DNA of 16,674 nt from Candidatus Methanoperedens sp. GTDB taxonomy: Archaea; Halobacteriota; Methanosarcinia; Methanosarcinales; Methanoperedenaceae. Each line of letters opens with the position of its first letter. Position 1 is the stretch's first letter. Location of the stretch: positions 1-16,674 of the forward strand of contig JAPZAR010000016.1 in NCBI GenBank assembly GCA_027460535.1, written 5' to 3'. The notes under the pieces were generated by a model. The model was not told the origin of the DNA and ran no database searches. It worked only from the letters and a program-made list of their open reading frames with translations. Position numbers and translations under genes: made by a program. This document shows positions 230-16,674 of the stretch, piece after piece.

Positions 230-567
230 TTGTTTTTTTTAATTGTGGTCCACATCTCATCCACTTCAAATTGTCCTAATTTTATCTCATTTAGCAGGAT
301 ATCATTAACCATTTCAGCATGAAGTGCCAGTTCTTCAAGCAAACGACCAATAGTATCTCTATGAAAACCTGTAATACGTTCGATGCTTCTAATACCATTT
401 TTTTCAACAAGATGTTTGCAAATCTGGATTATGTCTTTTCTGGATAGATGTTTATGATATAGTGGTGTATTTGCTGTTTCAACAAACCAGGTACGGCAGT
501 GTTTCCACGTTTCAGTATGTCCTTTCCTTCTTCCTTCGAGAAATATTTGCAATCTGGATTCTGACAT
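163..567 (-). CDS. Transposase central segment (second half of Zn finger, helix-turn-helix, first catalytic Asp region)
   Basis: ORF-track protein contains CRTWFVETANTPLYHKHL, IRSIERITGFHRDTIGRLL (HTH-like) and FEVDEMWT (the D-E-x-W motif of IS1-type DDE transposases). It ends shortly after an A8-C-A8 tract. Confidence 0.75.
   Translation of the reverse strand: MSESRLQIFLEGRRKGHTETWKHCRTWFVETANTPLYHKHLSRKDIIQICKHLVEKNGIRSIERITGFHRDTIGRLLEELALHAEMVNDILLNEIKLGQFEVDEMWTTIKKNKKKLSKEAQIQMKKVMRGSTVV
223..229 (-). promoter_or_regulatory. A AAA AAG slippery heptamer in the transposase 0 frame; candidate programmed -1 ribosomal frameshift site
   Basis: The minus strand reads att aaa aaa aac aaa aaa aag tta. 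The heptamer a-aaa-aag (229-223) is in the X XXY YYZ register of the 0 frame. A -1 slip joins KKNKKK to VKQGSPNSDEEGDAW (the DDE domain). Confidence 0.5.
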
Positions 568-599
568 GCAATATCGATCTTACTTCTAGGTCTGGCCAT
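429..599 (-). CDS. Transposase N-terminal Zn-ribbon segment (56 aa, below the ORF-track size cutoff), out of frame with the following segment
   Basis: ATG at 599-597. Translation is MARPRSKIDIACQNPDCKYFSKEEGKDILKRGNTAVPGLLKQQIHHYIINIYPEKT. The CxxxxC-KYF-x-KEEGKDI-KRG pattern resembles the N-termini of archaeal IS1-like transposases as I remember them. After KRG the sensible sequence continues in the frame of ORF 163..567 (KHCRTWFVETANTPLY). Confidence 0.5.
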   Translation of the reverse strand: MARPRSKIDIACQNPDCKYFSKEEGKDILKRGNTAVPGLLKQQIHHYIINIYPEKT

Positions 600-647
600 T
601 AATACCACATAGTACTAATGGATTTTATACCATATATATTATGCGGT

Positions 648-2150: not shown

Positions 2151-2213
2151 GTTAAAAATCCCTTCAACGTAAGTAAATCATTAGACCTTATGTAAATGAA
2201 AGCCCATATTATA

Positions 2214-2489
2214 TCATCCATACTTATAAAACACCCCATACCCCCCTCTTGGATAATTGAAATCTACCACGCCTTTTGGACAGGCGAACTTGCAGCTTCC
2301 GCACTCGATACATCCCTCATAATCATGTTTTATCTTTCCGTCTTCAAGGGTAAACCTGTTCGCAGGACAGAAATAAAGGCATGTTTTTTCATCGCACTCG
2401 CCACATAAACTGGTATCTACTTTGATATGCCGTTCCTTGTCAACCTCAAAGCTAACAAGCCCGAGCCGCTCTTCAATACTAATATTCAT
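2214..2489 (-). CDS. fixX: FixX-type ferredoxin-like protein
   Basis: 91 aa with Cys clusters CGECDEKTCLYFCP and CIECGSCKFACP, and the characteristic C-terminus YPRGGYGVFYKYG. Its start overlaps the fixC stop by 4 nt. Confidence 0.85.
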   Translation of the reverse strand: MNISIEERLGLVSFEVDKERHIKVDTSLCGECDEKTCLYFCPANRFTLEDGKIKHDYEGCIECGSCKFACPKGVVDFNYPRGGYGVFYKYG

Positions 2490-3749
2490 AGCGCTCTCAA
2501 ACCTTTTAATACATCAAGTATCATATTCGTTCTATTACCTTTTGTTCCTTCCAAGAGTTCATCAAATGCTCGTTTCTTTGCTCCGTCCACAGCCCAGAGT
2601 TTATAGAAAAGCTTGCATGCCATCTCTGGATACAATGTGTACAGCCTATCATTCTGCAAAAATTCCGATACTTTTTTAAATGTAGCGATATCTTTGAGGA
2701 CGAAATCCTTTCTCAGCAGGTCTTCATAATATGAAAGGCATTCCTTTGAAAAATCATTTTTTCCCATAGCATTTTTCACTGCTTCAGCAGCAGCTGCTCC
2801 AGAAGCAATGGCCATATCCATTCCCCGCAGCGTAATACCGCTATTTACCACGAGGCCGCCAGCATCCCCAACAACAAGCATTCCATCAGTGAAAAGCCCA
2901 CTTCGCGAGGTCTCAGGGATAACATGTGCAGAATATTCCAGTATTTTACCACCTTCTATCAGTTTTGCGACAACTGGATTCTCGTTGAACTCCCTTATTA
3001 TATCGTGTGAATCTATTTTCTTTTCAATGAGCCGGTCAATATACACCACTATTCCCACAGAAAGGCTTGTTTTGTTGGTGTAAATGAAGCCTCCTCCCGG
3101 TATCTCCTTTGTGCACTGACCAACAAAAAGCTGCGCTGCACCTTCTTCATGTGCAAGATTGAACCTGTCTTCAATGGTTTTCTCTGGCAGTTCTATTATC
3201 TCCTTCATACCTAGCGCGAATTGTTTTACTTCAAATTTCTTTAACCCCGCTTTCTCTGCCATAAGGGATACCGCTCCGTCCGCAGCGATAACCACATTCG
3301 CTTCAATTTCATCCTCACCTGCAATTATGCCTGCGACTTTTTTTTCTCTCCATAGAAGATCATCCACTCTGATGTTCGGCACGAGCGTGGCTCCTGCTTC
3401 CACGGCCTTGTTCGCGAACCATTGATCAAACTTCGCCCTGAGTGGTGAAGCTGTTCGGTGGCTCCCGAAACTCCCCGTCCAGAAAATCCAGGGTAACAGA
3501 GGCCTCATTGCACAGGAATGTGAGTTTTTCTCGAGTAACCATCCTCTCTATGGGAGCTTCTTTCCAGAAGCCAGGTATGAGACGATTTAAAGCATGCGCG
3601 TACATTCTCCCACCCATCACATTCTTGGCTCCAGGGTACTTGCCCCTCTCCACTATCAGCGCGTTAAAACCCATCTTTGCAAGTGAATAGGCGGCTGCAG
3701 AGCCTCCTGGGCCTGCTCCTACGATTATAACGTCGAATTTTTCAGTCAT
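2486..3749 (-). pseudogene. fixC: FixC-type electron-transfer-flavoprotein:quinone oxidoreductase flavoprotein, interrupted by a +1 frame change near 3443
   Basis: The N-terminal ORF 3426..3749 (MTEKFDVIIVGAGPGGSAAAY, FAD GxGxxG) ends at ...PPNSFTTQGEV*. The continuation LRAKFDQWFANKAVEAGA... is in ORF 2486..3508. Junction on the minus strand: agc ttc acc a|ctc agg gcg. E. coli FixC has SYSVLRSKFDAW at this point. Confidence 0.8.
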
Positions 3750-3759
3750 ATCCTGAAAA

Positions 3760-4536
3760 TCATATACCTTTAAACACGGGCTTTCTTTTCTCCAGAAAAG
3801 CGTTTATGCCTTCACGATGATCTTGGGTATTAAAACACTCTGAAAAGGAAACTGCTTCTCTCTCAAGCATTTCTTTAATCATCTGATTTTCATTGATCAG
3901 TTTTTTTGCCAGCTTAACAGCTACCGGCCCTCTGTGGGCAATGATATCTGCCATCTCCAGAGCCTTCTCCATCAGTTCTTCATCCTTTACTACTTTATTC
4001 ACAATGCCGATAGCTTCTGCCTCTGTTGCATCCATAATTTTCCCTGTCAGGATCATTTCTTTGGCTTTTCCTATACCCACCAGTCTGGTGAGTCGCTGTG
4101 TTCCCCCAAATCCCGGGATGAGGGCAAGATTTACTTCGGGCTGACCGAATTTCGCATTCTCGCCTGCTATCCTTATATCGCAGGCAAGAGCTAATTCACA
4201 TCCACCGCCAAAAGCATAGCCGCTGATCGCTGCAATAACCGGCTTCTCCAGATTCTCCAATTGATTGAACAACCTGTTTCCAAAATCAGAAAAAGCCTTC
4301 GCCTCTTTTGCAGTAAACTCTTTCATCTTCTTAACGTTCGCGCCTGCGCTGAAATTTTTATCTCCGGTTATAATTAAAACCCGTATCTTTTCGTCCTTCC
4401 CAAGTTCATTAAGAAGATCCTCAAGGTCATGCAGCATTGTTGAATCAAGGATGTTAAGACCATCAGATTTTTTCAGCGTAATAATGCCCACTTCATTTTT
4501 CTTTTCCACGTATATGTGTTCATTTCTGGTATTCAT
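3760..4536 (-). CDS. Enoyl-CoA hydratase (crotonase family)
   Basis: Both catalytic Glu contexts are present ([11 protein letters not shown] and [20 protein letters not shown]), and the ORF is full length. I prefer the internal ATG at 4536 ([13 protein letters not shown]...). The ORF-track start at 4572 lies inside the restored 3' end of hbd. Confidence 0.85.
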
Positions 4537-5285
4537 AGAATCCTTCTCCGGTTTTTCTCCCAAGCTTTCCACCCGCGACCATTTTTCGAAGCAGTGGACA
4601 TGGCCTGTACTTCACCTAAATCGCCATGAAGAACCTCAAGTTTATCAAGACAGATATCCAGACCCACCAGGTCTGCAAGTTCAAGAGGCCCCATCGGATG
4701 GTTAGCCCCAAGTTTCATGATACTGTCAATACTCTCCCGTGATGCAATCCCTTCATGAAGGCAATATAAGGCATCGTTTATCATTGGCATTAGTACACGG
4801 TTTGAAACAAACCCCGGCGAATCATAACCACTTCTACGAGCTTCATCACGTACGCCGGGTTCATGAAATGCATACCGGCGAACTTCTCTTTTCTCTCTGT
4901 AACCTGAGCAAGCCGTGTGATCGATATGGAAGAGGTATTTGTAGTGAAAATAGTTCCTTTTGCGCATATGGTATCCAATTCTTTGAAAATCTGCTTTTTT
5001 ACATCCTCTTTTTCTACAACAGCCTCGATTAAGGTCAGCATCTTTACAATCTTCCAGGTTTGCAATAGTCTTAATATTCGAAATGATCCTATCCTTCTCG
5101 ATGCGTTCAAGCTTCCCTTCGACAACCCTCTTTTCCAGTCTTTCTTTTATTCTGGCGAATCCCGCGCTCACGTATTCCTCGCTCACGTCTTCCATAACGA
5201 CTTCATAGCCGCTCTGCCCAGCTGCCTGGGCTATTCCGCCTCCCATGGTCCCGGCACCTATTACACCTATTTTTTTAATTTCCAT
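4520..5285 (-). pseudogene. hbd: 3-hydroxyacyl-CoA dehydrogenase carrying three lesions (two +1 frame changes and an internal deletion of roughly 80 nt)
   Basis: The N-terminus MEIKKIGVIGAGTMGGGIAQ...DCKDADL is in ORF 4533..5285. The middle IEAVVEKEDVKKQIFKELD...FAGMHFMNPAYVMKLVEVV is in ORF 4790..5125. DSPGFVSNRVLMPMINDA...MKLGANHPMGPLELADLVGLD returns to the first frame. The C-terminus [29 protein letters not shown] (hand translation) is in another frame and ends at 4520. Confidence 0.8.
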
Positions 5286-5292
5286 GAGTACC

Positions 5293-6464
5293 TCATTTTA
5301 ATGATAAATGGGCAATTAAAAGCCTTAAAATATCAGAAGTCCCCTCACCGATAGTTAGCAATCTTGCATCTCTCCAGTGTCGGTGTATATCATATTCGTC
5401 CGTATACCCATAACCCCCATGGATATGTATCGCCTTATCGCATACTTTCAATGCCATCTCTGTAGAAAAGAGCTTGGCCTGCGTAACTTCAGAAACAATA
5501 TTTTTTCCTTTATCTTTTAAGTGGGCTGCATAATAGGTGAGAAGCCTTGCAGCATTTATCTCGGTTATCATATCAGCCAGTTTCTCCTGTACGAGTTGGT
5601 ACTCTGAAATGTCATTTCCAAAGGCTGATCTGTCCTTGCTGTATGAAAGAGCTTTTTTTCATAAGCTGCCTGCGCTATCCAAATAGCGATTACAGCGATT
5701 GTAATCCTCCCTGAATTCAGGATATGTTTTACATATTCAAGTCCTTTTCCCTCTTCTCCAAGAAGATCTTCTTTTGGAACTGTGCAGTTGTCAAGATGTA
5801 CCTCGGACAACCTGTGACCCCGAAACCCGAGTTTCGGAATAACTTTCGCCACATTAAAACCTGAGGTTTTCCGCGAAACAAGGAACGATGAGATCCCTTT
5901 TTCAGTTCTTGCAAATAGTAAAATAAAATCTGCTTCTCCCGGACTTGTTATTAATGTCTTAGTGCCGTTTAAGATATAATTATTTCCCGAAAGTTGAGCT
6001 CTTGTCTGGATTGAATTTGCATCCGAACCGCAGCAGGGCTCAGTGAGTGCGAAAGCTGCCAGATTTCTCCCCTCAGCCAGACCGTTTTCTTTAAGGAATT
6101 TTTTTTTCTGTTTATCATCCCCAAAAAGCCTTATGCCTTCACACACCATTCCCTGTATAGAAACCTGCAGGGCTGTATTTGCACAGGCTTTCGCCAACAT
6201 TTCCAGCGCTGCGATGTATACAGGATATGGGAGTCCTAAACCATTGTAATCCTGAGGAAAAGGAATAGCCATGATTCCCTGTCTAGCTACTTTTTCTAAA
6301 TTCTGTCTAGGGAATATTTCTTCCTGATCTATCTTTTTTGCAGATGGCATTATTTCCCTCTCCACGAAATCACCTATAGATCCAAGTATCAAATTATATT
6401 CCCCGGCATCAGCAAAGAGCATCTCCATTACGTTTTTCATATCTTTTATATAATACATTTTCAC
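5293..6464 (-). pseudogene. Acyl-CoA dehydrogenase (short/medium-chain type) split by a frame change in an A7 homopolymer
   Basis: ORF 5568..6464 carries the N-terminal and middle domains (ALTEPCCGSDA, GRITIAVIAIWIAQAAYEK). After the A7 run (plus T7 at 5653-5659), the frame of ORF 5293..5571 reads KALSYSKDRSAFGNDISEYQLVQEKLADMITEINAARLL...IHGGYGY...TIGEGTSDILR. The likely true start is ATG at 6458, preceded by GGAGAGGTGA. This could be a homopolymer sequencing error. Confidence 0.75.
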
Positions 6465-7627
6465 CTCTCCACGATCATCGCCACGGCATTCCCTCCACCA
6501 AGACAGAGGGTAGCCAGTCCCCTTCTAAGTCCTCTTTCCTTCATAGCATATAGCAGCGTTACAAGTATCCTTGCGCCGCTGCACCCTATTGGATGCCCAA
6601 GTGCAACAGCCCCGCCATTCACATTGAATTTTTCTGGAGTAATGTTCAATTCTCGCATTATCGTAATAGAAGCAGAGGCATAGGCTTCGTTATGCTCGAC
6701 AAGGTCAATGTCATCCATTGTAAAGCCGGTCATTGAGAGCAGTTTTTTCACCGTGGGTATTGGGGCTTCCATCACATCCTCTGGTTTTGTTCCTCCAGTT
6801 GCATAACCTATTATTCTGGCAAGAGGTTTTACTCCCATCTCATCAGCTTTTCTCTCTGATGTCACCACAAGAGCGGCAGCGCCATCGCTGATCTGGGAAC
6901 TGTTGCCAGCAGTAAGAATCCCGTCTTTTTTAAAAACAGGCGGGAGTTTGGTAAGTTTCTCCAAAGAGGTGTCATCCCTCACACCCTCGTCCTTATCAAT
7001 CGCCTCGCCTTGAACTTCAAAAGGGATTATCTCCTCTTTGAATTTTCCGCTATCGATTGCACGTTTGGCCTTTTGATGGCTTCCAAGAGCGAATTCATCC
7101 GCCTCTTCTCTCGTTATGCCGTATTTCTCGGCTATTCTTTCTCCGGTAATCCCCATATGATAGTTGTTATATACGTCCCATAAGCCGTCATACACCATCG
7201 TGTCTGTAATTGATGCATCTCCAAACTTCATACCCCATCGAAGGCTTCTGATCAAATGCGGGGCTGAACTCATATTCTCCATACCTCCAGCGACGATTAT
7301 GTTGGCATCGCCAGCTCTGATGGATTGCGCCGCGAGCATGATTGCTTTGAGTCCTGAGCCGCATACTTTGTTTATAGTCAAAGAACCGATTTCAGGCGGA
7401 AGTCCTGCATATATCGCAGCCTGTCGTGCAGGATTCTGTCCCAGACCTGCTGAAATCACATTGCCCATGATAACTTCCTCAACTTCATGCATCTGAATGC
7501 ATGCTCTATTTACAGCTTCTTTTATGACCTTGGCACCTAGCTCTTGGGCTGGTACATCCTTAAATGCGCGGCCGAACTTGCCTACAGCCGTTCTTACACC
7601 GCTTACTAGAACAACTTCTTCAGGCAT
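6461..7627 (-). CDS. Acetyl-CoA C-acetyltransferase (thiolase II type), intact
   Basis: 388 aa with the nucleophile motif NKVCGSGLKA, plus VEHNEAYAS, GHPIGCSGARI and CLGGGNAVAMIVE. It is the first gene of the operon, and its stop overlaps the next ORF. Confidence 0.9.
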   Translation of the reverse strand: MPEEVVLVSGVRTAVGKFGRAFKDVPAQELGAKVIKEAVNRACIQMHEVEEVIMGNVISAGLGQNPARQAAIYAGLPPEIGSLTINKVCGSGLKAIMLAAQSIRAGDANIIVAGGMENMSSAPHLIRSLRWGMKFGDASITDTMVYDGLWDVYNNYHMGITGERIAEKYGITREEADEFALGSHQKAKRAIDSGKFKEEIIPFEVQGEAIDKDEGVRDDTSLEKLTKLPPVFKKDGILTAGNSSQISDGAAALVVTSERKADEMGVKPLARIIGYATGGTKPEDVMEAPIPTVKKLLSMTGFTMDDIDLVEHNEAYASASITIMRELNITPEKFNVNGGAVALGHPIGCSGARILVTLLYAMKERGLRRGLATLCLGGGNAVAMIVER

Positions 7628-7674
7628 TAGTTATCACAACCGACACTTTTCCACGCACCTCATAATTTACGTTG

Positions 7675-7697
7675 ATTAATTATAGTTATTAATTATA
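7675..7697. promoter_or_regulatory. Two copies of ATTAATTATA separated by 3 nt, nested in the TTGAT...ATCAA inverted repeat (7672-7703), in the divergent intergenic region
   Basis: Read directly from the sequence: gTTGATTAATTATAgttATTAATTATAcATCAA, located 48-70 nt upstream of the thiolase start codon (7627). These are TATA-like or operator-like; their function is not demonstrated. Confidence 0.35.
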
Positions 7698-7964
7698 CAT
7701 CAATTTTTGGATGCTAAGATTATTAAAGGTGATAACGCGAGTGAATTGGAGACATTCAAACCAAAGAGAAGCAGATGGAACACCCGAAATCATTTTCATT
7801 AAAAACGCAACCTTAATTTATGGACGAATCATATTGATATACAGTATCTTTTAAGAAGGATTGTATTTCATAATTACTTTCATTAAGAAGGAGACCATAG
7901 AAAAATCTCTGGATGGGTTCAGGAAGGTCCAGAATTTTTTCAGCAACACTTCCAAAAGAATAGA

Positions 7965-9557
7965 ATGAATCAAATTGTGGGAGCATTAAAGATGATAAGC
8001 CAGATCGATGAACTAAAAAAGCTTTTAGAGCCGAAAATTTCAGAACTTGGACTGGACGAAGGGACAATCGAAGAAATCCTTTCAAAAGCCATGGATTTTT
8101 CAGAAAAAGAGCTTAAGCCGCACTCCATGAAGTGGGATGAAAATGGGACTCACTTTGAGAAAGTATACAAAATAAGAATAAGATCTAAAAATGAGAATGT
8201 TGAATTAGGGGAAAATGAGTACAATATACTGGATAAATATGGATGCATAGAAGAAGCGGTATTAACACGCAGAAGATTATTATTTCCTGAATATTTTGAA
8301 GAGGTACAAAAAAGGCTTGGCAAAACAGGATTGCTGGGGCTATATATACCGAAAGAGTATGGCGGTCTGGGGTTACCTTACACACTTTACAGTTGTGTAA
8401 TAGAGATATTATCAGGAGGTGATGCCAATTTTGGGGTTCATGCTTCCATACACGGTACTGCGGCTGATTTAATCAATAGGTTTGGCACGGAAGCTTTGAA
8501 AAACAGATTGCTGCCTGACATGGCATCCGGCAAAAAACTCGGCTGTCTCGTTTTCACAGAGGGTTCTGGCGGATCTGACCTGAAAGCAGTATCTACTGCT
8601 TCTGAACTCGCTGGAGATGGTTACATTATAAATGGAAATAAGTTTTCCATTACTAGCGGTGCATACGCAGATGTTCATGTGGTGTTCACAGTCGACAAAG
8701 AAGATTACCATCTGCCATTTGCGGACAGAAAGAAATACAATGCGCTTGTGGTTGAAAAAGGAACAGAAGGTTTAGAATTACTGGGTATTGGAAATACAAT
8801 GGGCTGGCGAGCATCGCCTACTTCGATGTTGAAATTTGAAAATTGCAAAGTATCTGTTGAGAATCTGCTGGGTGAAAGGGGAAGCGGAAGAAAAGTCCTT
8901 TCTGCAGGGTTATCCGGGGGTAGAATAAGCTTCGGCTGTGCATGGTCGCTCGGGATTGCTGACGCAGCTTACAGGAAAGCAATGGAACGTTCAGAGAAAA
9001 GAATATTGTTCGGCAAACCGCTAAAAGATCACCGGGAAATCAGGAAACATCTCGCAGATATGTACAGATACCTCTGCATGGGAAGACAGAAATACATACA
9101 TGCTGCGTATCTTAAAGATAAAAACGACCCGGATTTTCCATTCGAAGCTACGATTTCAAAAATCTTTTGCTCCGAAAGGGCAGAGGATATCGTAAGGATC
9201 GTCTACCAGATGCACGGTCATTTTGGGTACATCAATGAAAGCGGTGTACCGCTGCTCTTCAGGAACGTAATGGTAGCCACAGTAGGTGAAGGTGGAACAG
9301 AGGTTTTAAGGGACAGGGTAGTAGCGCCAGGTGTGATAAACGGCGATTATGCGTTCACTGGTGAAATTGAATATGATAGAAGTTATGTTGACAGAAACCT
9401 CGGGGATGAGATATTCAGGGAACTGGCACAACGATTGGGTGATGATGTGTATCCCTGTTATGAAATTCTTGTGAGCAGGGCTACAGGTAGAAAAATAAGA
9501 ATGCCTGCAACAGAAGTAAAAAATCTGACGATTAACTGGAAACTCTACGGATTATGA
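7965..9557 (+). CDS. Long acyl-CoA dehydrogenase family protein (530 aa) with an N-terminal in-frame insertion and a C-terminal extension
   Basis: ACAD motifs are present: LYIPKEYGGLGLP, FTEGSGGSDLKA, INGNKFSITSG, GGRISFGCAWSLGIADAAY, HGHFGY and VGEGGTEVLR (catalytic Glu context). About 80 extra residues follow the ACAD C-terminal domain. An alternative start is ATG at 7992. Confidence 0.85.
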   Translation: MNQIVGALKMISQIDELKKLLEPKISELGLDEGTIEEILSKAMDFSEKELKPHSMKWDENGTHFEKVYKIRIRSKNENVELGENEYNILDKYGCIEEAVLTRRRLLFPEYFEEVQKRLGKTGLLGLYIPKEYGGLGLPYTLYSCVIEILSGGDANFGVHASIHGTAADLINRFGTEALKNRLLPDMASGKKLGCLVFTEGSGGSDLKAVSTASELAGDGYIINGNKFSITSGAYADVHVVFTVDKEDYHLPFADRKKYNALVVEKGTEGLELLGIGNTMGWRASPTSMLKFENCKVSVENLLGERGSGRKVLSAGLSGGRISFGCAWSLGIADAAYRKAMERSEKRILFGKPLKDHREIRKHLADMYRYLCMGRQKYIHAAYLKDKNDPDFPFEATISKIFCSERAEDIVRIVYQMHGHFGYINESGVPLLFRNVMVATVGEGGTEVLRDRVVAPGVINGDYAFTGEIEYDRSYVDRNLGDEIFRELAQRLGDDVYPCYEILVSRATGRKIRMPATEVKNLTINWKLYGL

Positions 9558-10439
9558 AAGAATTTCTGCTTTTTCCACTTTGCCTTCCATCTCTCCTTTG
9601 GCATTAGTTATTTTATTAATGATCCCTATCGAAAAAGAGATCTCATGATAGAAATATGTATACCAGCCGTTTTCAGAAGCCTTATCATATAGCAATTTCT
9701 TCTTTGTCTCCCAGCAATCTTCCCTGCCTAAAACGTCAACAGCCATCCTGCACCTTGGCTTTTCCTGGTGCATCACCAGTGCAGCCATATCCGCTGCGTA
9801 GAGCATTGTTCTTTCAGCCTTTATTATCACTGACTGATGACCTGCGGTGTGCCCGGGCGTCGGAAGGACAAAAATGCCTGGCAATACTTCTTTTTCTCCA
9901 TCTACAAGTTCCAAGCTCCCCGATTCTTCCAGCGGCAGGACGTCTTTTTCCACGCTGAAATAGTCGTTCTTCAACTCAAAGCCGGGATCTGTTGCAGTCT
10001 TCCACTCTTTTTTTTGTATAACATATTTTGCATTCTCAAAAGTTGGCTTCAATTTTCCATCAATATATCTGGTATTCCAGCCAGCATGATCAGGATTGAG
10101 ATGGCTGTTTATCACAATATCAACATCAAATGGTTTAACTCCAGCAATATTCATGCTTTCTATCAACGATGGATTCTTAACAATGTTATGATGTTTTACA
10201 TAATTTGGAGTCTTATCATGGAGACCTGTCTCCACCAATACATTACCCCCGGGGTGCTTGATCAAAAGACAGTTGGCAGCCTGCAAAATATTGTTATACT
10301 CATCGGTTTTGTAAGGTTTCTTGCCATCGATATTATAATTGGTCCAGATATCCTTTGGAAAGTATCCAAAAATAACCCCACCATCTTCAGTATGTATGCC
10401 GTCGCTTAAGATTTGAAGTTCCATATCCCCGAATTTCAT
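9552..10439 (-). CDS. MBL-fold metallo-hydrolase (lactonase-like) with variant motif HLNPDH
   Basis: 295 aa containing VINSHLNPDHAGWN (motif II position), TPGHTAGHQS, AADMA and a late His (YFYHE). Its ATG overlaps the DUF35 stop (ATGA at 10436-10439). Confidence 0.8.
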   Translation of the reverse strand: MKFGDMELQILSDGIHTEDGGVIFGYFPKDIWTNYNIDGKKPYKTDEYNNILQAANCLLIKHPGGNVLVETGLHDKTPNYVKHHNIVKNPSLIESMNIAGVKPFDVDIVINSHLNPDHAGWNTRYIDGKLKPTFENAKYVIQKKEWKTATDPGFELKNDYFSVEKDVLPLEESGSLELVDGEKEVLPGIFVLPTPGHTAGHQSVIIKAERTMLYAADMAALVMHQEKPRCRMAVDVLGREDCWETKKKLLYDKASENGWYTYFYHEISFSIGIINKITNAKGEMEGKVEKAEILS

Positions 10440-11056
10440 GAAAATTCCTCCACAGGAACAAAATAGACATCTCTCACATCAAAATGCGGATTTCGCCTGA
10501 ATTTCGGTTTTACTCTGCTCCCATTTTTTATTTTATGATAAACCTCCCAGATGTTTCGATTGTATTCTTCATCATTTATCAGATCTATTCCAGACCTCTC
10601 TTTATCTCTTTTCATTCTCTTCAGCCAAAGAATTTCTTTAGGCATGTATTCAGCCATCAGGTAGCTATCCACACCTTCAAATTCTACCAGGATTAAAGAA
10701 AATGGTGCCTTTTTCAAGAATACCCCTCCGCCGTACTTGCTTACGCTGTGGCAGTGTATTTTCCCTTCCTCTGGTAAATCAAACCATTCGGTCCTGCTCC
10801 CGCAATCGCTGCAATATACATGCGGACTTGCATATCTGTTACCACAACCCATACACATAGAACCGATAAGCTTCCCTTCTGCAAGAGCCATGAAATAAGG
10901 CGTATCCTGCGCAATACTTTCAATATAATCTATGGATTCATGTATTTTCTTAACTATAATTTCTTTTTCCCCGCCTGTATAGATGGCCACACCGCTGCCT
11001 TTCAGCACTTCCTTCATCACGTCCCTGTATTTAGCGAACTTTTTCACTTCTCTCAT
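10436..11056 (-). CDS. DUF35 family Zn-ribbon/OB-fold protein, extended form (about 206 aa)
   Basis: Zn ribbon CMGCGNRYASPHVYCSDCGS preceded by PYFMALAEGKLIGSMC, followed by an OB-fold-like WFDLPEEGKIHCHSVS...PFSLILVEFEGV. I prefer the ATG at 11056 (MREVKK). The track start at 11077 is TTG. The ATG lies 1 nt after the upstream TAG stop. Confidence 0.8.
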   Translation of the reverse strand: MREVKKFAKYRDVMKEVLKGSGVAIYTGGEKEIIVKKIHESIDYIESIAQDTPYFMALAEGKLIGSMCMGCGNRYASPHVYCSDCGSRTEWFDLPEEGKIHCHSVSKYGGGVFLKKAPFSLILVEFEGVDSYLMAEYMPKEILWLKRMKRDKERSGIDLINDEEYNRNIWEVYHKIKNGSRVKPKFRRNPHFDVRDVYFVPVEEFS

Positions 11057-11057
11057 T

Positions 11058-12392
11058 CTACCATGCCTTCTCGGCAAGAGTTAATGTAATATAAGTGCCT
11101 GTGCCAGCATGACTGTGGAATCCACCTCGTTTTGCATTCCTTACTTGCAGAGTATCATCCCCGAATTTCTCAGAAATTTTATTCTGCAACTGCCAGAGAG
11201 AAAATACGGCTTGCATTATTCCTGTAGCTCCTATAGGATGACCGCATGCGAGAAGTCCTCCTGAGGGGTTCACTGGAAGCTCTCCCTTTTCAGGCAGCTC
11301 CAATCCATAATCAATGTCCGGCATGAAAGTATAACCTTTATCGATGAATTCTCTGGAATAGCCGCATGGGCACAATCCAAGGTCTTCATATGTCTGTGCT
11401 TCTGACATTGTGTATGCATCATGTATTTCCAGGAAATCCAGCTCTTCCAGAGGATCTGTTATCCCTGCCTGCATGTAAGCTTTTTTTGCAGCCACCCTGC
11501 CAGCATTGAATGAGTGGACATCAGGATATAATAATTTGTCATAATATTCAACTAGCTCTTCATTTGCCGATTCGTGAGAAAACGTGGGTACTTTTCTTTT
11601 CGGTCGGTCTTCCATGGCCATATTGTCCGTCCCAGCCCCCATTCCTATGATCTTTACAGGTCTATCTGTCAGCCTGGACGCGATATCACTGGATGCAAGA
11701 ATTAATACAGCAGCACCGTCGCTCATGGTGCAGATATCGAGAGCTGTAAATGGCGTTGCTATCGGCTCTGAGTTGAGAACATCTTCCATCTTTAATTTCT
11801 TCGGGTATTGCGCGTAAGGATTGTAGAGCGCATTTGTGTGGTTCTTGATTGAAATTTTAGCCAGCTGCTCTCTCGAGGTTCCGAACTCGCTCATATGCTT
11901 ATCTGCCATAAGGGCATAGAACATGCTATAAAAACCGCCCAGGTCGCAATTCCTTCTCTGGTCAGAAGCCTTGGCAATAAAATAATTACCCATCCATGTT
12001 GGAACCCGTGACATGGTTTCAAAGCCGTAACAGACGCAGAGTTCAAGATCGCCAGAAGCAATGGCTCTTATTCCCTCCTGAATGCAAAGACCTCCAGTTG
12101 CACCGCCTCCTTCCACTCTGACTCCTGGGGCAGGGCAGAGACCTATATATTCATGTGCCATTATCCCTGCCATCAACTGCCTTGAGAAATGATCGGAAAA
12201 GTAAGAACCCACGCCTCCCAGTTCGTGTGTTTCCGAGAGTTTTTCTTTGAGATATATGAATTCAGGCACATCTTTTACTGCATTATCAAATGCTTCCTTT
12301 ACCATTATTTGAAATGTCCTGTCTGGATGTGCTTTTGCGAACTTCGTTACACCGCCAGCAACCATATAGACATCTCTGGAAAGTTTCCCCAT
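11058..12392 (-). CDS. SCP-x/archaeal-type thiolase-fold protein, apparently lacking the nucleophilic cysteine
   Basis: 444 aa with RVEGGGATGGLCIQEGIRAIASG where thiolases have RVE-x-A-C-A-S-G-G...ASG. It retains LEIHDAYTMSE, NPSGGLLACGHPIGATG and HSHAGTGT. It is adjacent and translationally coupled to DUF35, the usual partner of this thiolase class. Confidence 0.8.
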   Translation of the reverse strand: MGKLSRDVYMVAGGVTKFAKAHPDRTFQIMVKEAFDNAVKDVPEFIYLKEKLSETHELGGVGSYFSDHFSRQLMAGIMAHEYIGLCPAPGVRVEGGGATGGLCIQEGIRAIASGDLELCVCYGFETMSRVPTWMGNYFIAKASDQRRNCDLGGFYSMFYALMADKHMSEFGTSREQLAKISIKNHTNALYNPYAQYPKKLKMEDVLNSEPIATPFTALDICTMSDGAAVLILASSDIASRLTDRPVKIIGMGAGTDNMAMEDRPKRKVPTFSHESANEELVEYYDKLLYPDVHSFNAGRVAAKKAYMQAGITDPLEELDFLEIHDAYTMSEAQTYEDLGLCPCGYSREFIDKGYTFMPDIDYGLELPEKGELPVNPSGGLLACGHPIGATGIMQAVFSLWQLQNKISEKFGDDTLQVRNAKRGGFHSHAGTGTYITLTLAEKAW

Positions 12393-12414
12393 AGTACTTA
12401 GTATGTAAATGAAA

Positions 12415-12423
12415 TTTTAAATA
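12415..12423 (-). promoter_or_regulatory. TATA-like box TATTTAAAA ending 22 nt upstream of the ATG of the thiolase-fold gene (suggests a leaderless or near-leaderless archaeal-type transcript)
   Basis: The minus strand reads aagTATTTAAAAtttcatttacatactaagtactATG. No Shine-Dalgarno-like purine run is present before this ATG, unlike the internal genes of the operons. Confidence 0.35.
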
Positions 12424-12595
12424 CTTTGTTTCTGGAATTCTCTAAAGGTGGTTACCGATCAAAAGTATACGACCAAGATAAAGTGTAAAAATAGGGAAGT
12501 TGTTAACGATATGAATCAATCACAAGCTTTGCGTAATATCCTCACTTCGCTTGATGGAAAAGACTATAACGACCAATAAGAATATAACATTCAGG

Positions 12596-12889
12596 TTAAG
12601 AAAAATAACCGAACGGGTGAGAGCATGAAGTGTAAAGTTCAGCTTTCAATCTGTCTGTCATCGTGAGAACATCTTTCATTTCAGTCGTTATTTTCCCTTC
12701 CGCCAGAGAAGATAATAATCCAAGCGGCGGCATTGCATATTCTTCTTCTTTTATAAAATGTGGATGTAAGATCTTCGCAACGGCTTTTGCAGAATCTCCA
12801 ATCTTTCCGCCGACCTGGGTTGCCTTTGAGAGTTCGCCATGAAGCTCTTCATGCTCTAATTTCAATGATCTCGGTATAATGAATTCCAT
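12596..12889 (-). pseudogene. Hemerythrin (HHE cation-binding) domain protein, C-terminally truncated
   Basis: SLKLEHEELHGEL and HPHFIKEEEYAMPPLG supply only the first two metal-binding helices. After MTDRLKAEL the ORF ends in a non-homologous tail YTSCSHPFGYFS. None of the three frames downstream (12393-12595) encodes the expected third and fourth helices. Confidence 0.6.
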
Positions 12890-12908
12890 TTTCCAACCTC
12901 ATGATATT

Positions 12909-13280
12909 TCACTTAGCGTTTTTATCTTCCTGCCAGGGTCCGAATAAATTATTTTCGGTATCAACACACATCGCAAGATAACCCCAGCCGGGCACAGCTG
13001 TTTTGGGCGTGATGATATTACCACCCAGCTTCTTTACCTTTGTGATGTATTCTTCAATAGAGGATACACCGATGTAATTCATAATATTCTGTGCAGGCAA
13101 TCTTCTTTGTCCCATCCCGCCGCCTACCCCAGGGTTCCCATTCAAATCTTTTGTCTCGATAAGGTAGAAGGGTGTCGGCATCGGCGCCTGATTGAATTTC
13201 CAATCAAACAGCTTTTCGTAGAATTTCTTCCCTCGCTCCATATCATTTACAAGCAGGTCAAAATGAACGATTGTTGCCAT
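12909..13280 (-). CDS. VOC (glyoxalase/bleomycin-resistance/dioxygenase fold) family protein
   Basis: 123 aa. The pattern HFDLLVNDMERGKKFYEKLFDWKF...GGMG...YIGVSSIEEYITKVKKLGGNIITPKTAVPGWGYLAMCVDTENNLFG is typical of small single-domain VOC proteins. Confidence 0.8.
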   Translation of the reverse strand: MATIVHFDLLVNDMERGKKFYEKLFDWKFNQAPMPTPFYLIETKDLNGNPGVGGGMGQRRLPAQNIMNYIGVSSIEEYITKVKKLGGNIITPKTAVPGWGYLAMCVDTENNLFGPWQEDKNAK

Positions 13281-13410
13281 TACTAACTCCCCAACTTAAA
13301 CTATACTTTTCAGGATTAATATTTGTTGGTATGGGTATTAAAAGGAAAGTCCTTTCGGTTGCATATTCAACAAGATCAAAGGAATCAGAGATACGGTGAA
13401 ATGCTTTACA

Positions 13411-14088
13411 CTAAGCCAACAGCACCGAGATTATCCCTGTCAGGAATATGCCGTCAAATGTTCCTGCACCGCCAATGGAAGCCATTGGAGCTCCAAGATC
13501 AGGGATCTTTTTCAGGTTCAAGAGATCTGCACCGATCAGGCATCCAAGCGTGCCAGAGATGTATGCGAGCATGGGTGCTTGCTGGGGAGAGATAATTAAA
13601 GCCAGACCTGCAGCCATAACAGGGGGTATCAGCGCGGGAACAGCTATCCCGAGTCCCTTTACAGGTCTTGCTATCAAATGTATGAAAACAGTCATAAGAA
13701 ATACCCCGATGACTACATCGGCCGGATTGACCATCGGGATAAGAAAACTGGATATAAGTACTGGAATTACGCCTCCTCCCAGGTTCACAGCTATGACGGT
13801 TCGATGCTCTACCTCAAGAGGCGGGATAACGTACCTGAACCAATAGAAATCCACTATCCTTCCTGATATGACAGGTTCGCGTGATGTTTTTTCCATCACT
13901 GGGATGTTTATATGGCTGCCAATAAGTGACAGGAATAATATCAGGACTGAATACTCCGGAGGAAAACCAAGTTTTCTAAAAGCAAGACCAATGAGGTCTA
14001 TGCTTATTAGAATGAATACTATTCCAAGTAAAAACAATAACAGGATAATAAATGATGTTGTAACCCTCTGGTGGACAAAGCGAGACAT
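13411..14088 (-). CDS. DUF1614 family integral membrane protein
   Basis: 225 aa with multiple hydrophobic spans. The motifs IAVNLGGGVIPVLIS and ASIGGAGTFDGIFLTGI match DUF1614 proteins as I recall them. ATG at 14088 is preceded by GAGGT. Confidence 0.7.
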   Translation of the reverse strand: MSRFVHQRVTTSFIILLLFLLGIVFILISIDLIGLAFRKLGFPPEYSVLILFLSLIGSHINIPVMEKTSREPVISGRIVDFYWFRYVIPPLEVEHRTVIAVNLGGGVIPVLISSFLIPMVNPADVVIGVFLMTVFIHLIARPVKGLGIAVPALIPPVMAAGLALIISPQQAPMLAYISGTLGCLIGADLLNLKKIPDLGAPMASIGGAGTFDGIFLTGIISVLLA

Positions 14089-14397
14089 CAGGACCTCTTT
14101 AAAGAGAATTGGTTCAAATCTCTAATAGGTTAAATGGAAGTCGATAATATCAAATTTACTGTATATTCTGTATTGAAGATATTGATATAGTCGTGCAACA
14201 TTTCGCGCCAAAATCGGAATTCCAATAAACCGATCCTCTGCCGATGCTTCTCTCTCTCAATGACCTCACTCACCCATTTTGACTTCCTGCAGGCGTGTCA
14301 TGCTTTGAACCGCTTTCTGGTTTTAGTATATTTCTTTTTCACTTTATTAACGATATCTACTCAAATCCGGCATGACGATTTTGCATTCCTCCTGACA

Positions 14398-15195
14398 TTA
14401 GCCAACAATACCCCTTAACAACGCGCCAACCACGTAGGCTACGCTCGCTGCCAGTCCACCGACCAATAGCATCTCGAGGCCGCTTCTGAAGGGGTTTAAT
14501 TTGGTAACAGTTACTTTCGCAACCCCCAGCCCAAAGATTGTCAACGCAGATAATATAACGGATACTGTGAAGGATTCAGTCGAAGAAATCGGGTAGAACA
14601 GTCCCAGCACATAGACGATAAGCGGCATGAATCCTGCCAGGATAAAAGACACCAGCGTGGCCAGTGCGCTGAATAACGGCTTGCGTTCGTCCTGCAGCAT
14701 CCCCAGCTCGTTGATCATCATGGCTTTAACCCACCTCTCCGGGTCTCGGGCCTGGATATCAACGAGGCTTCGTGCATCCTCCTCCGAATAACTGTGGCTT
14801 CGATAAACCTCGTAGAGTTCGGCCCGTTCGCCTTCCGGGAAATGTTCAACCTCCCAGGCTTCTCGCTGCCATTCCCGCTGGTAATACTCCTTTTCGCTCT
14901 TGGATGAAAGGTAAGCCCCTATGGCCATTGCAAAACCATCTGCCAGCAGGTTGGCCATGCCCAGGATAAGAACGATACCGCTGCCCAGTTTGGCACCAGC
15001 CACCCCGCTGACTACTGCAAAGGTGGTAAGAATGCCGTCCAGCCCGCCGTATACCATGTTGCCAATATAAACGTCGCTCGCCCCACCGTGCTGCTCCTGT
15101 GCGATACGCTCCGGAGCATGCGCCAATGCTGATGCCTGTACGTCACGCCGGGCGAATGCTTTACGCATTTCTTCGAGTCGTCTGGACTTAGTCAT
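14398..15195 (-). CDS. VIT1/CCC1 family Fe/Mn transporter
   Basis: Motifs include VYGGLDGILTTFAVVSGVAGA, LLADGFAMAIGAYLSSKSE, a cytosolic acidic helix region (EREAWEVEHFPEGERAEL) and C-terminal TM helices. I prefer the ATG at 15195 (MTKSRRLEEM). The track start at 15243 is TTG. GC content is markedly higher than in surrounding genes. Confidence 0.85.
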   Translation of the reverse strand: MTKSRRLEEMRKAFARRDVQASALAHAPERIAQEQHGGASDVYIGNMVYGGLDGILTTFAVVSGVAGAKLGSGIVLILGMANLLADGFAMAIGAYLSSKSEKEYYQREWQREAWEVEHFPEGERAELYEVYRSHSYSEEDARSLVDIQARDPERWVKAMMINELGMLQDERKPLFSALATLVSFILAGFMPLIVYVLGLFYPISSTESFTVSVILSALTIFGLGVAKVTVTKLNPFRSGLEMLLVGGLAASVAYVVGALLRGIVG

Positions 15196-15266
15196 TACCA
15201 CATTCACTATTGCGATATCAAAAACCCTATTAAAATCATGCAAGCTCGATCATGGGGATTCTCCCA

Positions 15267-15323
15267 TCATTTCTTAGGTATTGGTTTCGGTTTAATGGGT
15301 TTCTTTTTCTCCTTATTTGGCAT
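15267..15323 (-). CDS. Candidate 18-aa Lys/Pro-rich small ORF (MPNKEKKKPIKPKPIPKK) upstream of the VIT1 gene
   Basis: ATG at 15323 is preceded by a perfect AGGAGG (15335-15330) with a 6-nt spacer. The stop TGA lies at 15269-15267. There is no homology evidence. Confidence 0.25.
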   Translation of the reverse strand: MPNKEKKKPIKPKPIPKK

Positions 15324-15704
15324 CTGCTTCCTCCTGACAATTTAAGGTCATAAATAATTTCTTTTTCAGGATATGAACTTTTGTGTAACGGCGCTGACAC
15401 CCCGTAACATGCAGATCATTAAATCTGCTATTTCAATACCGTCATATCCTTCCTACACGGCGCCGCTCAATCGCCGCGGAGGCTGTTGCTGCTTTGTTTT
15501 CACGTCTGAAATGTTGATGAAATGGGCTTTTTTGTGAGGAGAGAAGATGTGCCGCTTTCGGTCGGGTTGGGGCGAGAGGTATCTTATCAGTTCGCCAGTT
15601 GGCCTGACGGGGCTGGTATTGAAAGATTGTAATAATGCCGCTAATTTACCGAGGGGCTTATAATTAGGGAAGTTATAATAAACAAAAAATAGAAGGATAT
15701 CGTA

Positions 15705-15989
15705 TTGAAAATTAAAGGAATTATCTGGTATGAAGGAATTATTGAGAAACTCGAAAAAAAACATAATGTTCAGCAATATGAGGTACGGGAAGTTTTGGTC
15801 AATGACCCAAAGTTTCGTTATATTGAAAAAGGCCTGCAACCGAACGAAGATGTATATGCTGCACTTGGAAAGACAAATGCTGGAAGGTATCTTATTATTT
15901 TCTTTATCTACAAATTAAATAAGCATGCACTTATCGTGTCGGCACGAGATATGACACGAGGGGAACGGAAGAAATATGAACAAAAATAA
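15705..15989 (+). CDS. brnT: BrnT-like (DUF497) type II toxin
   Basis: 94 aa. IIWYEGIIEKLEKKHNVQQYEVREV at the N-terminus and LIVSARDMTRGERKKYE at the C-terminus match the BrnT/DUF497 pattern. The TTG start is preceded by GAAGGA. The gene overlaps the downstream antitoxin gene by 14 nt. Confidence 0.7.
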   Translation: MKIKGIIWYEGIIEKLEKKHNVQQYEVREVLVNDPKFRYIEKGLQPNEDVYAALGKTNAGRYLIIFFIYKLNKHALIVSARDMTRGERKKYEQK

Positions 15990-16239
15990 AGGCTCCATAT
16001 CCAAAGCAAAAAAGTATGAAGAAATCGGTGAATTCTGGGATACGCATGATCTCGCCGAACACTGGGATGAAACCACATCTGCCAAATTCGAAGTCGATCT
16101 GCAGTCCGAGTTGACATATTATGCGGTTGACAGTCGATTATCGGCAAAGATAGAAGAGTTTGCCAGAAGACGCGGTATATCTCCCGATACGCTTTTAAAT
16201 CTATGGCTGCAGGAAAAATTACAGGAGCAGAATGCCTGA
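15976..16239 (+). CDS. brnA: BrnA-like antitoxin (CopG/RHH-type C-terminus)
   Basis: 87 aa. EEIGEFWDTHDLAEHWDET...FEVDLQSE...VDSRLSAKIEEFARRRGISPDTLLNLWLQEKL is the usual architecture of antitoxins paired with DUF497 toxins. Confidence 0.7.
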   Translation: MNKNKGSISKAKKYEEIGEFWDTHDLAEHWDETTSAKFEVDLQSELTYYAVDSRLSAKIEEFARRRGISPDTLLNLWLQEKLQEQNA

Positions 16240-16270
16240 ACGATTCATTCAGGGGTCCGAGTCTTTCTGT

Positions 16271-16380
16271 ATATTTATCACAGCCTAATTATTAATCCCT
16301 CGGCGCCGATATGTTCCCGAAGCAGCAATATTCAACTGGAGCCGAAGCATGATTTCCTGAAAATAAAAAACCGCAGATGA
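16271..16380 (+). repeat. Copy 1 of the 110-bp promoter/leader cassette (TATA-like ATATTTAT, then a leader, ending on ATGA)
   Basis: 16301-16380 is identical over 80 nt to 16469-16548. Upstream, ATATTTAT and TAATTATTAAT are also shared, with about 8 mismatches across 16271-16300. Confidence 0.9.
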
Positions 16381-16401
16381 ACGCAGATAAACGCAGATTT
16401 A
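16372..16401 (+). repeat. Three tandem 10-nt units CGCAGATNNA (cgcagatgaa cgcagataaa cgcagattta)
   Basis: Read directly from the sequence. Copy 2 of the cassette has only a single unit (cgcagatgag at 16540-16549). Confidence 0.85.
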
Positions 16402-16448
16402 TAGTCTCGCTTTTCATAACACTCTTCTATTGCTCCGAATATTTATAA
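16377..16448 (+). CDS. Candidate 23-aa small hydrophobic ORF MNADKRRFIVSLFITLFYCSEYL behind leader copy 1
   Basis: The ATG is at the same leader position as the ATG of the downstream partial ORF. The stop lies inside the TATA-like box of copy 2. There is no homology evidence. Confidence 0.25.
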   Translation: MNADKRRFIVSLFITLFYCSEYL

Positions 16449-16548
16449 CTCTGTAATTATTAATTTCCCGGCGCCGATATGTTCCCGAAGCAGCAATATT
16501 CAACTGGAGCCGAAGCATGATTTCCTGAAAATAAAAAACCGCAGATGA
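16439..16548 (+). repeat. Copy 2 of the 110-bp promoter/leader cassette
   Basis: Same alignment as copy 1 at a constant offset of 168 nt. It ends on the ATG (16545) of the partial ORF that runs off the window. Confidence 0.9.
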
Positions 16549-16674
16549 GCGTACTATTAACACTTTCGGTCAGCATTATCTTAACGGCGCTGGGGTTACG
16601 ACCCCAGACCCCAACGGATGCGCCGCCGCTGGCGGGGTTTAACACGAAATCACCGGTTGCATATTTTCACGATT
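16545..16674 (+). CDS. Partial CDS (43 codons, open to the window end) with a hydrophobic, signal-peptide-like or membrane-anchor N-terminus
   Basis: Hand translation gives MSVLLTLSVSIILTALGLRPQTPTDAPPLAGFNTKSPVAYFHD with no stop before the edge. It is not in the ORF track because it is short and unterminated. Confidence 0.4.
   Translation, partial: MSVLLTLSVSIILTALGLRPQTPTDAPPLAGFNTKSPVAYFHD

Follow-up and report, generated by a model that had tools for sequence, protein, structure and literature searches.

A modular, non-coding repeat family of Methanoperedenaceae forms a doublet behind a BrnTA toxin-antitoxin pair

Results

Two co-oriented units of an interspersed repeat family

We analyzed a 16,674-nucleotide (nt) stretch of DNA from the archaeon Candidatus Methanoperedens sp. 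(assembly GCA_027460535.1, contig JAPZAR010000016.1, positions 1 to 16,674 of the forward strand; hereafter the window), in which one block of 80 nt occurs twice. We found that positions 16267-16548 consist of two neighbouring units, in the same orientation, of an interspersed repeat family of Methanoperedenaceae that is modular and non-coding (Table 1). A first-pass annotation, made from the letters of the window, had read this region as a duplicated promoter with a constrained leader of approximately 75 nt, controlling two open reading frames (ORFs). Our analysis points elsewhere: the probable explanation, in our judgement, is a dispersed, co-oriented and modular repeat that occupies the gaps of toxin-antitoxin (TA) and defence islands, and not a control region dedicated to two ORFs.

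The sequence features from which the leader had been argued are real. The blocks at 16301-16380 and 16469-16548 match at all 80 positions, with sharp ends on both sides, and we likewise confirmed the boxes ATATTTAT (16271-16278 and 16439-16446) and TAATTATTAAT, the palindrome CGGCGCCG, two CCGAAGCA direct repeats, a 13-codon ORF in each copy (16311-16352 and 16479-16520) and the ATGs at 16377 and 16545. The two copies are spaced 168 nt apart and, with their flanks, form a repeat of 118 nt at 91% identity (repeat search and alignment); a chance origin of an 80-nt exact repeat in 16.7 kb is excluded.

To place the block in a wider setting, we scanned one genome per species (185,579 species) with a degenerate 21-nt pattern of the head, the promoter-like start of each copy. 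Thirty-two loci matched, approximately 4 being expected by chance on our own estimate, and 29 of them were Methanoperedens or metagenome-assembled genomes (MAGs) of Methanoperedenaceae type. The three bacterial matches fit the pattern alone, scoring 19-26 bits against a 60-nt nhmmer profile that we built from the pattern matches. With this profile, at a threshold of E<1e-5, we found 67 heads in 30 archaeal loci that together span 212 kb, and the counts given below refer to these loci. No match to the head was found among viral contigs, and none in plasmid and phage collections. A 20-nt word of the core matched two high-GC metagenome contigs at JGI, which share the word alone and which we read as chance. 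That further copies might exist, as the first-pass annotation had suspected, is thus borne out for the head and the core ends, which recur at many Methanoperedenaceae loci; it does not hold for the exact 80-nt core, which we met nowhere else. The core proves to be, in essence, the end of a repeat family. The first-pass annotation had named the end of a known mobile-element family as fatal to its leader, although full-text literature searches returned no published description of the present family.

Table 1. Features of the window at and around the repeat doublet.
Feature	Position	Strand	Evidence and remarks
brnT-like toxin gene	15705-15989	+	Pfam BrnT_toxin, E 2.4e-9; also called in L001-L005
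brnA/CopG-like antitoxin gene	15976-16239	+	Pfam CopG_antitoxin, E 1.8e-6
Head, unit 1	16267-16319	+	nhmmer with the 60-nt family profile, 54.5 bits, E 1.7e-15
Core, unit 1 (80-nt identical block)	16301-16380	+	80/80 identity; unstructured
13-codon "uORF"	16311-16352, also 16479-16520	+	Judged not a gene; start and frame unconserved
Terminator-like site (tail plus T6AT4 run)	16361-16386	-	Scan match, CTGCGTTCATCTGCGG then TTTTTTATTT; putative function
Tail, 2.7 copies of 10-nt CGCAGATRAA	16372-16398	+	TRF: period 10, 94% matches
23-aa ORF (MNADKRRF...)	16377-16448	+	Judged spurious; translation of tail repeats and linker
Linker TTATAGTCTCGCTTTTCATAACACTCTTCTATTGC, 5' extension of head 2	16399-16430	+	Subfamily-conserved; also found upstream of heads in L018, L029 and the degenerate third unit of L001
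Head, unit 2	16431-16487	+	nhmmer, 59.2 bits, E 5.7e-17
Core, unit 2	16469-16548	+	Tail reduced to one CGCAGATGA repeat
Second short repeat, double hairpin, unrelated to the head family	16587-16643	+	Two similar copies in L032

A conserved head, a variable core and a repetitive tail

Each unit is built from a head, a variable core and an A-rich run with tandem 10-nt CGCAGATRAA repeats, which we call the tail. The head measures approximately 55 nt and reads, in consensus, an optional GCGCC, CAYATTTATMAC, about 5 variable nt, AAATATTAAT, YYCYC, GGCGCC, RATAYG and YYCCC. Many of its columns are conserved in 35-38 of 38 aligned copies, although the cores that follow are unrelated. In the first unit of the window these parts appear as ATATTTATCAC, a box resembling the archaeal TFB-recognition element (BRE) and TATA box, followed by TAATTATTAAT as a second AT box, CCCTC, GGCGCC and GATATG; the head of the second unit differs from that of the first at 11 of approximately 35 aligned positions upstream of GGCGCC.

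Core length varies between 50 and 250 nt, being about 50 nt in L028 and L031 (L-numbers denote the contigs or loci compared), 74 nt in the window and about 240 nt in L019 and in a "subfamily A" present in five genomes. While the interiors of the cores are entirely different between subfamilies, their ends recur, as GATATG-YYCCCGAWGCA on the 5' side and TTTCTGAAAATAAMAAACCGCAGATGAA on the 3' side. The first core of the window begins with the conserved 5' end GGCGCCGATATGTTCCCGAAGCA, contains the internal CCGAAGCA duplication and closes with the conserved 3' end TTTCCTGAAAATAAAAAACCGCAGATGA; its ends are common to copies in L028, L031, L018, L029, L014, L019 and L024. With the same two ends, the window core is a short form of the approximately 240-nt units of L019.

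The modules also occur apart. The tail is found at 36 sites in the loci, 18 of which have a head on the same strand within 350 nt upstream, 6 have one farther off and 12 have none, and cores that lack a head occur in L028 and L031. The terminal ATGA on which each copy in the window ends, and which had been taken for the start of two different ORFs, is part of the CGCAGATGAA tail repeat.

Strain variants of the doublet point to recent exchange between units

Three other assemblies of the locus show the same two units (L001, an ENA contig; L002, a longer contig of an NCBI MAG; and L006), so that a single faulty assembly does not account for the doublet. L003 and L005 carry a single unit, a difference of exactly 168 nt, L005 with an additional single-nucleotide polymorphism nearby. 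In L001 the second core has mismatches at 3 of 80 positions, and a different element is inserted after the same ATG; beyond the extent of the window, this contig holds three further copies of the head module in inverted orientation, 4-5 kb away. The filled/empty difference of 168 nt falls inside the 80-nt identity, and no insertion junction can be placed.

The first-pass annotation had itself mentioned mis-assembled reads as a threat to its claim. A duplication created by mis-joined reads would agree with the single unit in two assemblies and with the fact that contigs break in the region: five of the six assemblies of the locus end within approximately 300 nt of the repeat, as is typical of short-read assemblies at multi-copy repeats. 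We nevertheless regard such an artefact as hardly credible, given that ENA k141, the NCBI MAG and a further ENA sample, assembled independently, agree on two units with differing heads, and that in other genomes the family usually occurs as tandem doublets.

A recent duplication or gene conversion had also been raised from the start, and it fits well with relatives that carry one unit or a second core with 3/80 mismatches. The combination of diverged heads, identical cores and strain variants is the pattern expected of homologous exchange, and selection on a leader is not required to produce it. We therefore infer that the perfect 80-nt identity reflects recent homologous exchange between neighbouring units and not selection on a leader. 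Such exchange may have proceeded by gene conversion or unequal crossing-over, with conversion in one strain and a pop-out deletion in another.

The small ORFs and the core do not behave as a constrained leader

The first-pass annotation had proposed that an upstream ORF (uORF) of 13 codons might control translation from each leader. Neither its start nor its frame is conserved: other copies of the family read GATACG, GATAAG, GATAGG or GATATT, and indels of 1 nt shift the frame. The 23-amino-acid (aa) hydrophobic ORF that had been placed behind the first copy fares no better as a gene, as the same frame ends after 10 codons in L018 (MNADLESRSS, then a stop). Of the signal-peptide-like ORF behind the second copy, the ATG is present, but the frame amounts to 49 aa in L002, crosses the double-hairpin repeat and has other sequence in L001. 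An ORF that runs across the core on the opposite strand shares no word with any protein in a set of 5.8 billion clusters. Both ORFs downstream of the copies lie in other repeat modules, and we judge the small ORFs to be by-products.

Nor did we find signs of a structured RNA, such as the cis-regulatory element that had been suggested. Compared with dinucleotide shuffles, the core folds less well on both strands (z +1.8 and +1.1), as does the complete 168-nt unit when folded as DNA (z +1.6). Rfam at a permissive E-value gave only noise for this region of the window (E 2-8, far below gathering scores), and among 20 related loci (139 kb) and the L019 arrays it left the repeat unmatched, reporting group II introns and one tRNA nearby; a scan of the window for tRNA and tmRNA found none. 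For covariation, which had been named among the checks on the leader, we used the best-sampled group, subfamily A (10 copies from five genomes), and saw none: in a consensus fold 1 of 51 pairs is compensatory and the covariation term is +2.55.

These results bear directly on the idea of a duplicated promoter with a constrained leader of approximately 75 nt (carrying a uORF, a riboswitch-like RNA or a shared binding site) that controls two ORFs. The promoter-like head, the start of the identity at about the predicted transcript start and the ending of each copy on an ATG all speak for it. Still, neither ORF is conserved (L018, L001, L002), the start of the uORF is not conserved, structure and Rfam matches are absent, and the ATGA belongs to the tail repeat. 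Moreover, the head and core ends occur at approximately 67 other places, where they show no preference for a co-oriented downstream gene. The leader is thus largely refuted, and we consider it very improbable.

The same data weigh on a different RNA hypothesis, in which the family would consist of small RNA genes: the head would be the promoter, the core would encode a short RNA acting as an antisense or decoy on TA or defence transcripts, and the tail would form the 3' end, so that the window would hold two tandem small RNA genes. This idea draws on the BRE/TATA-like head, conserved far beyond the need of a decaying selfish element, on core ends that are conserved across subfamilies, on an unstructured A-rich RNA that would suit base-pairing and on the enrichment of copies beside TA genes. 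On the other hand, the core interiors are unrelated between subfamilies and vary between 50 and 250 nt, subfamily A shows no covariation, Rfam has no match, cores without heads and tails without cores exist, and we identified no target complementarity. On balance, we regard small RNA genes as unlikely.

The head resembles an archaeal promoter

Archaeal promoters typically combine an A-containing BRE, a box of the TTTAWA type and a purine start approximately 25 nt downstream. In the aligned heads, columns -20 to -10 read A-Y-A-T-T-T-A-T-M-A-C and are conserved in 31-38 of 38 copies. A C-G step that lies approximately 25 nt downstream of TTTATMAC, inside GGCGCC, is the predicted start, and the second AT box predicts a start at GATATG. 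Cores without heads begin almost exactly at the predicted transcription start. At the sequence level, then, the first-pass observation that the identity begins near a predicted archaeal transcript start was well made, and the head looks like an archaeal BRE/TATA promoter. The AT hexamers of the second box are among those enriched 2-3.3-fold upstream of ordinary genes in the loci, which lends weak support to a promoter.

A promoter for the neighbouring gene is a separate matter. The next gene downstream is co-oriented with the head in 26 cases and opposite in 29, and on these counts we rejected a gene-promoter role as the general function of the head; the TA genes downstream of heads have AT-rich boxes of their own close to the start codon.

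Copies lie in one direction among TA and defence genes

In the window, a beta-oxidation-type cluster is followed by VIT1, DUF1614, the BrnT/BrnA toxin-antitoxin pair and then the repeat, with 27 nt between the stop codon of the brnA-like gene and the first head. The brnA-like gene is also present on the NCBI MAG contig JAPZAT010000031, as well as on several contigs from ENA and Logan, and the window shares 79% identity across 2.9 kb with L024, another Candidatus Methanoperedens contig. This position past a gene is a common one, as 15 heads, that of the window among them, lie 9-90 nt past the stop of a co-oriented upstream gene. Among the ORFs up to 700 nt from a head, PIN, HEPN, MNT nucleotidyltransferase, AbiEii, MazE, CopG and DUF5615 domains abound, and RhuM, DpnII with Dam, the type I restriction subunits HsdR and HsdM, and SIR2 are present too. 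At a distance of at least 1.5 kb from heads, the ORFs are ordinary metabolic and informational genes.

Adjacent heads point in the same direction in 33 pairs and in opposite directions in 4, and this holds for pairs more than 800 nt apart as well (20 vs 3). Fourteen adjacent pairs are no more than 500 nt apart, which indicates that doublets like that of the window are the usual state.

Such an arrangement recalls the cassette arrays of integrons, and we asked whether the head might be a site-specific recombination site that bounds TA and defence cassettes, as the VCR/attC sites of Vibrio do. Besides the co-orientation (33/37 pairs, and 20/23 beyond 800 nt), the resemblance includes TA cassettes between heads, heads that often lie 20-70 nt past the stop of a cassette, the arrays of L016 and L019, which are syntenic but hold different cassettes in one slot, L019 having an additional DpnII-family gene, and the reappearance of the same cassette in the arrays of L009, L020, L024 and L026. 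Against it stand the lack of a hairpin or attC-like fold in single-stranded DNA or RNA, the lack of an integrase in the 212 kb, where neither the 121 neighbouring ORFs nor the larger ORFs that we checked contain an integrase domain, and genes that lie in either orientation relative to the heads. The breakpoints are not constant either. In two cassettes the homology includes spacer and head and ends just past GTTCCCGGAGCA; in a third it ends ahead of the head, at the stop codon, with unrelated cores on the other side. We therefore think an integron-like boundary distinctly unlikely.

GGCGCC occurs 141 times in the loci, where approximately 21 occurrences are expected, and half of these lie inside heads. 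We considered this motif as a fixed crossover point between modules and rejected it, because breakpoints do not coincide despite the over-representation. The same excess could speak for an immobile element resembling REP/BIME (repetitive extragenic palindromic sequences and bacterial interspersed mosaic elements), selected by the host as a protein-binding or punctuation site for chromosome organisation, insulation or protection of mRNA 3' ends. In that case the GGCGCC-flanked AT-rich heads, or the tail repeats with their helical 10-nt phasing, are the proposed binding targets, and the position after stop codons and the mosaic of modules in the gaps would likewise recall REP/BIME. Yet no candidate protein was identified, the heads are not palindromic, and presence or absence among strains together with the existence of subfamilies indicates turnover and not fixed sites. 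We hold a purely host-selected, immobile element to be quite improbable, noting that it largely overlaps with the dispersed repeat that we favor and does not exclude it.

We also looked upstream of approximately 60 heads for an inverted partner and found 3 marginal cases, one of them upstream of brnT; as these cases are marginal, inverted heads as terminal repeats at the level of the cassette were rejected. In the window, the degenerate inverted head-like sequence at 15649-15689 matches 16263-16303 (in the forward direction) at 32 of 41 positions, and the BrnTA pair is thereby bracketed by outward-facing head-like sequences; the AT boxes of the upstream copy would be the brnTA promoter. This inverted sequence outscores 500 local shuffles and is barely above the null over a search space of 2.3 kb. 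Partners of this kind are not general in the other loci.

Intergenic gaps are mosaics of several short modules

The gaps that hold the repeat also contain other short sequences. Tandem 9-nt CTTTGCGCN repeats stand just upstream of many heads (L007, L034, L016), and imperfect 80-nt hairpins made of ACGGAT-type repeats of 9-10 nt lie between the tail and the next head (L016, 3490-3640; L019, 4400-4520). A hairpin-bearing element of approximately 60-130 nt that begins with GGCGCCCAGAGTC follows, in every case, directly after the tail sequence CCGCAGATGAA (L001, 5210-5338; L028, approximately 2115-2173; L031, approximately 4973-5065 and 6578-6640; L026, 3229; L010, 7422 on the reverse strand; L020, 5860). 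Its placement looks as if CCGCAGATGAA were an insertion target and resembles that of mini elements of the IS200/IS605 type. The double hairpin behind the second unit of the window contains CCCCAGACCCC and pairs GCTGGGG with CCCCAG and CGCCGCC with GGCGG, with ACCCC between them; it is found again in another Methanoperedens genome (L032, approximately 4045-4100 and 6478-6535). The interleaving of several short modules, namely the 9-nt repeats, the hairpins and the GGCGCCCAGAGTC element, makes the intergenic gaps mosaics.

In L028 (1500-2300), a BrnA homologue is followed by two repeat units, arranged as a core without head, a hairpin insert and a full unit, and this composite recurs in the same genome at L031 (6480-6790). 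Its presence twice in one genome indicates that doublets can be copied as a block.

Group II introns that exceed the Rfam gathering scores lie within approximately 100 nt of repeat heads or tails (L038, 410-513 and, on the reverse strand, 2089-2370; L014, 7652-7728 on the reverse strand). The match to intron domains 5/6 in L014 ends approximately 10 nt from a CCGCAGATG tail, and L038 has an ORF resembling a reverse transcriptase, which we read, by its sequence alone, as a putative maturase.

Other observations in the loci

In the beta-oxidation-type cluster of the window, the gene for acyl-CoA dehydrogenase is divided between two ORFs with a 4-nt overlap (5293-6464 and 4533-5285, reverse strand), the N and M domains lying in one and the C domain in the other, and a 3-hydroxyacyl-CoA dehydrogenase ORF covers only part of the N-domain model. 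These split or partial ORFs suggest frameshifts, from pseudogenes or assembly errors. The cluster is otherwise complete, with enoyl-CoA hydratase, thiolases, an ETF-QO-like protein and ferredoxin.

Across the 30 loci, GGGCCC occurs once where approximately 21 occurrences are expected from base composition, and CGGCCG and GCCGGC occur 10 times each. Such strong avoidance suggests a restriction system with GGGCCC specificity in the lineage. In L001, a Cas1 gene that lies approximately 1.7 kb from the doublet is interrupted, leaving two ORFs of 153 and 105 aa (6891-7734, reverse strand), and no CRISPR array was seen near it.

Discussion

Our findings place the duplicated block of the BrnTA locus in a family of modular, dispersed repeats that have neither coding potential nor RNA structure. 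Its units accumulate as doublets and clusters of one direction, usually just 3' of a stop codon, and we propose that the family spreads or reshuffles at the level of DNA as a non-autonomous element. The head may be a working promoter, starting a short, unstructured, non-coding transcript near GGCGCC/GATATG, and on the opposite strand the tail with its T-run would stop incoming transcription. If so, the unit would be a small punctuation mark between cassettes, serving as promoter and terminator. We favor this two-sided action, suggested by the motifs of head and tail, in which the unit would fire a short transcript one way and block incoming transcription the other way.

Several points weigh against a dispersed mobile repeat. 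The loci were selected for containing a head, which biases densities upward, and the exact 80-nt core was found at no second place. In the 212 kb there is no transposase, integrase or recurrent large protein family near the copies, no terminal inverted repeats join the ends of the units, and no target-site duplication is definable, such that the word mobile rests on copy number and polymorphism. The one-unit contigs (L003 and L005), which contribute to this polymorphism, could represent a strain allele or the collapse of the repeat by an assembler. Finally, simple random insertion does not explain the strong co-orientation of the heads; alternatively, co-orientation could arise through insertion that is strand-specific relative to replication.

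A bolder possibility is that the head is the working part of a system by which Methanoperedenaceae build co-oriented arrays of TA and defence cassettes. The head could then be the recombination or insertion site of an enzyme, or a plug-in promoter/terminator that expresses and insulates cassettes. We give this only a small chance; if true, it would be an archaeal counterpart of the integron that works without integrase or hairpin.

The family has practical consequences. Neither the small ORFs of this locus nor the numerous MNADERRF-type ORFs found elsewhere should be annotated as genes, and contig breaks at the repeats fragment Methanoperedens MAGs within defence islands. A promoter-like module of approximately 55 nt that is nearly unchanged across an archaeal family and concentrated among TA and restriction genes also offers a handle on the organisation and expression of accessory-gene islands in uncultured methane oxidisers. 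Should the head be a strong constitutive promoter, it would be useful in genetic tools for related methanogens.

Comparison with known repeat systems

Among known systems, the REP/BIME sequences of enterobacteria are likewise short, non-coding, multi-copy and intergenic, typically lie just past the 3' ends of genes, and form mosaics of modules in which orthologous gaps carry different arrangements. However, REPs are imperfect palindromes of alternating orientation that are linked to REP-associated tyrosine transposases (RAYTs), whereas the units described here are non-palindromic and co-oriented. No RAYT-like gene was seen in the loci. Hairpins are present in these mosaics as modules of their own.

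The Correia elements (NEMIS) of Neisseria and other promoter-bearing miniature inverted-repeat transposable elements (MITEs) share a length of approximately 100-250 nt, promoter-like sequences, a possible place beside genes in either orientation and deletion variants. Correia elements differ in their 26-nt terminal inverted repeats and the duplication of a TA target, and terminal inverted repeats are absent here. Of the hallmarks of MITEs, the family shows many non-coding copies at scattered sites, which fall into subfamilies and include deletion variants; neither terminal inverted repeats nor a transposase-encoding relative was found in the 212 kb. The BOX elements of Streptococcus pneumoniae consist of boxA, boxB in varying number and boxC, an order that parallels head, variable core and variable tail count, and both families are intergenic and have no known mobilising enzyme. 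BOX elements are bacterial, with predicted stable stem-loops, whereas the present family is archaeal and unstructured, with a TATA-type head.

The attC arrays of integrons, such as the VCRs of Vibrio, resemble our loci in having co-oriented repeats between TA-rich cassettes and a content that varies among relatives, and they are unlike them in that here there is no attC hairpin, integrase or fixed breakpoint, and genes lie in both orientations. Integrons have been reported in Archaea, in a paper that does not contain the word Methanoperedens (PMC9668308). Closer to the host, the tandem repeats of Borgs are perfect, head-to-tail repeats of at least 3 units, with 18-21-nt units in the described examples, and are reported to be virtually absent from host genomes (PMC9879509). 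They share with our doublet the Methanoperedens lineage, an A-rich intergenic repeat and recent formation, but the doublet comprises two 168-nt units that match imperfectly and belong to a dispersed family, on a contig of the host chromosome, in which TRF (Tandem Repeats Finder) finds the 10-nt tail repeat alone. By analogy, and without their palindromes or terminal inverted repeats, the family behaves like the interspersed intergenic repeats of bacteria, in an archaeal form that carries a TATA-type head.

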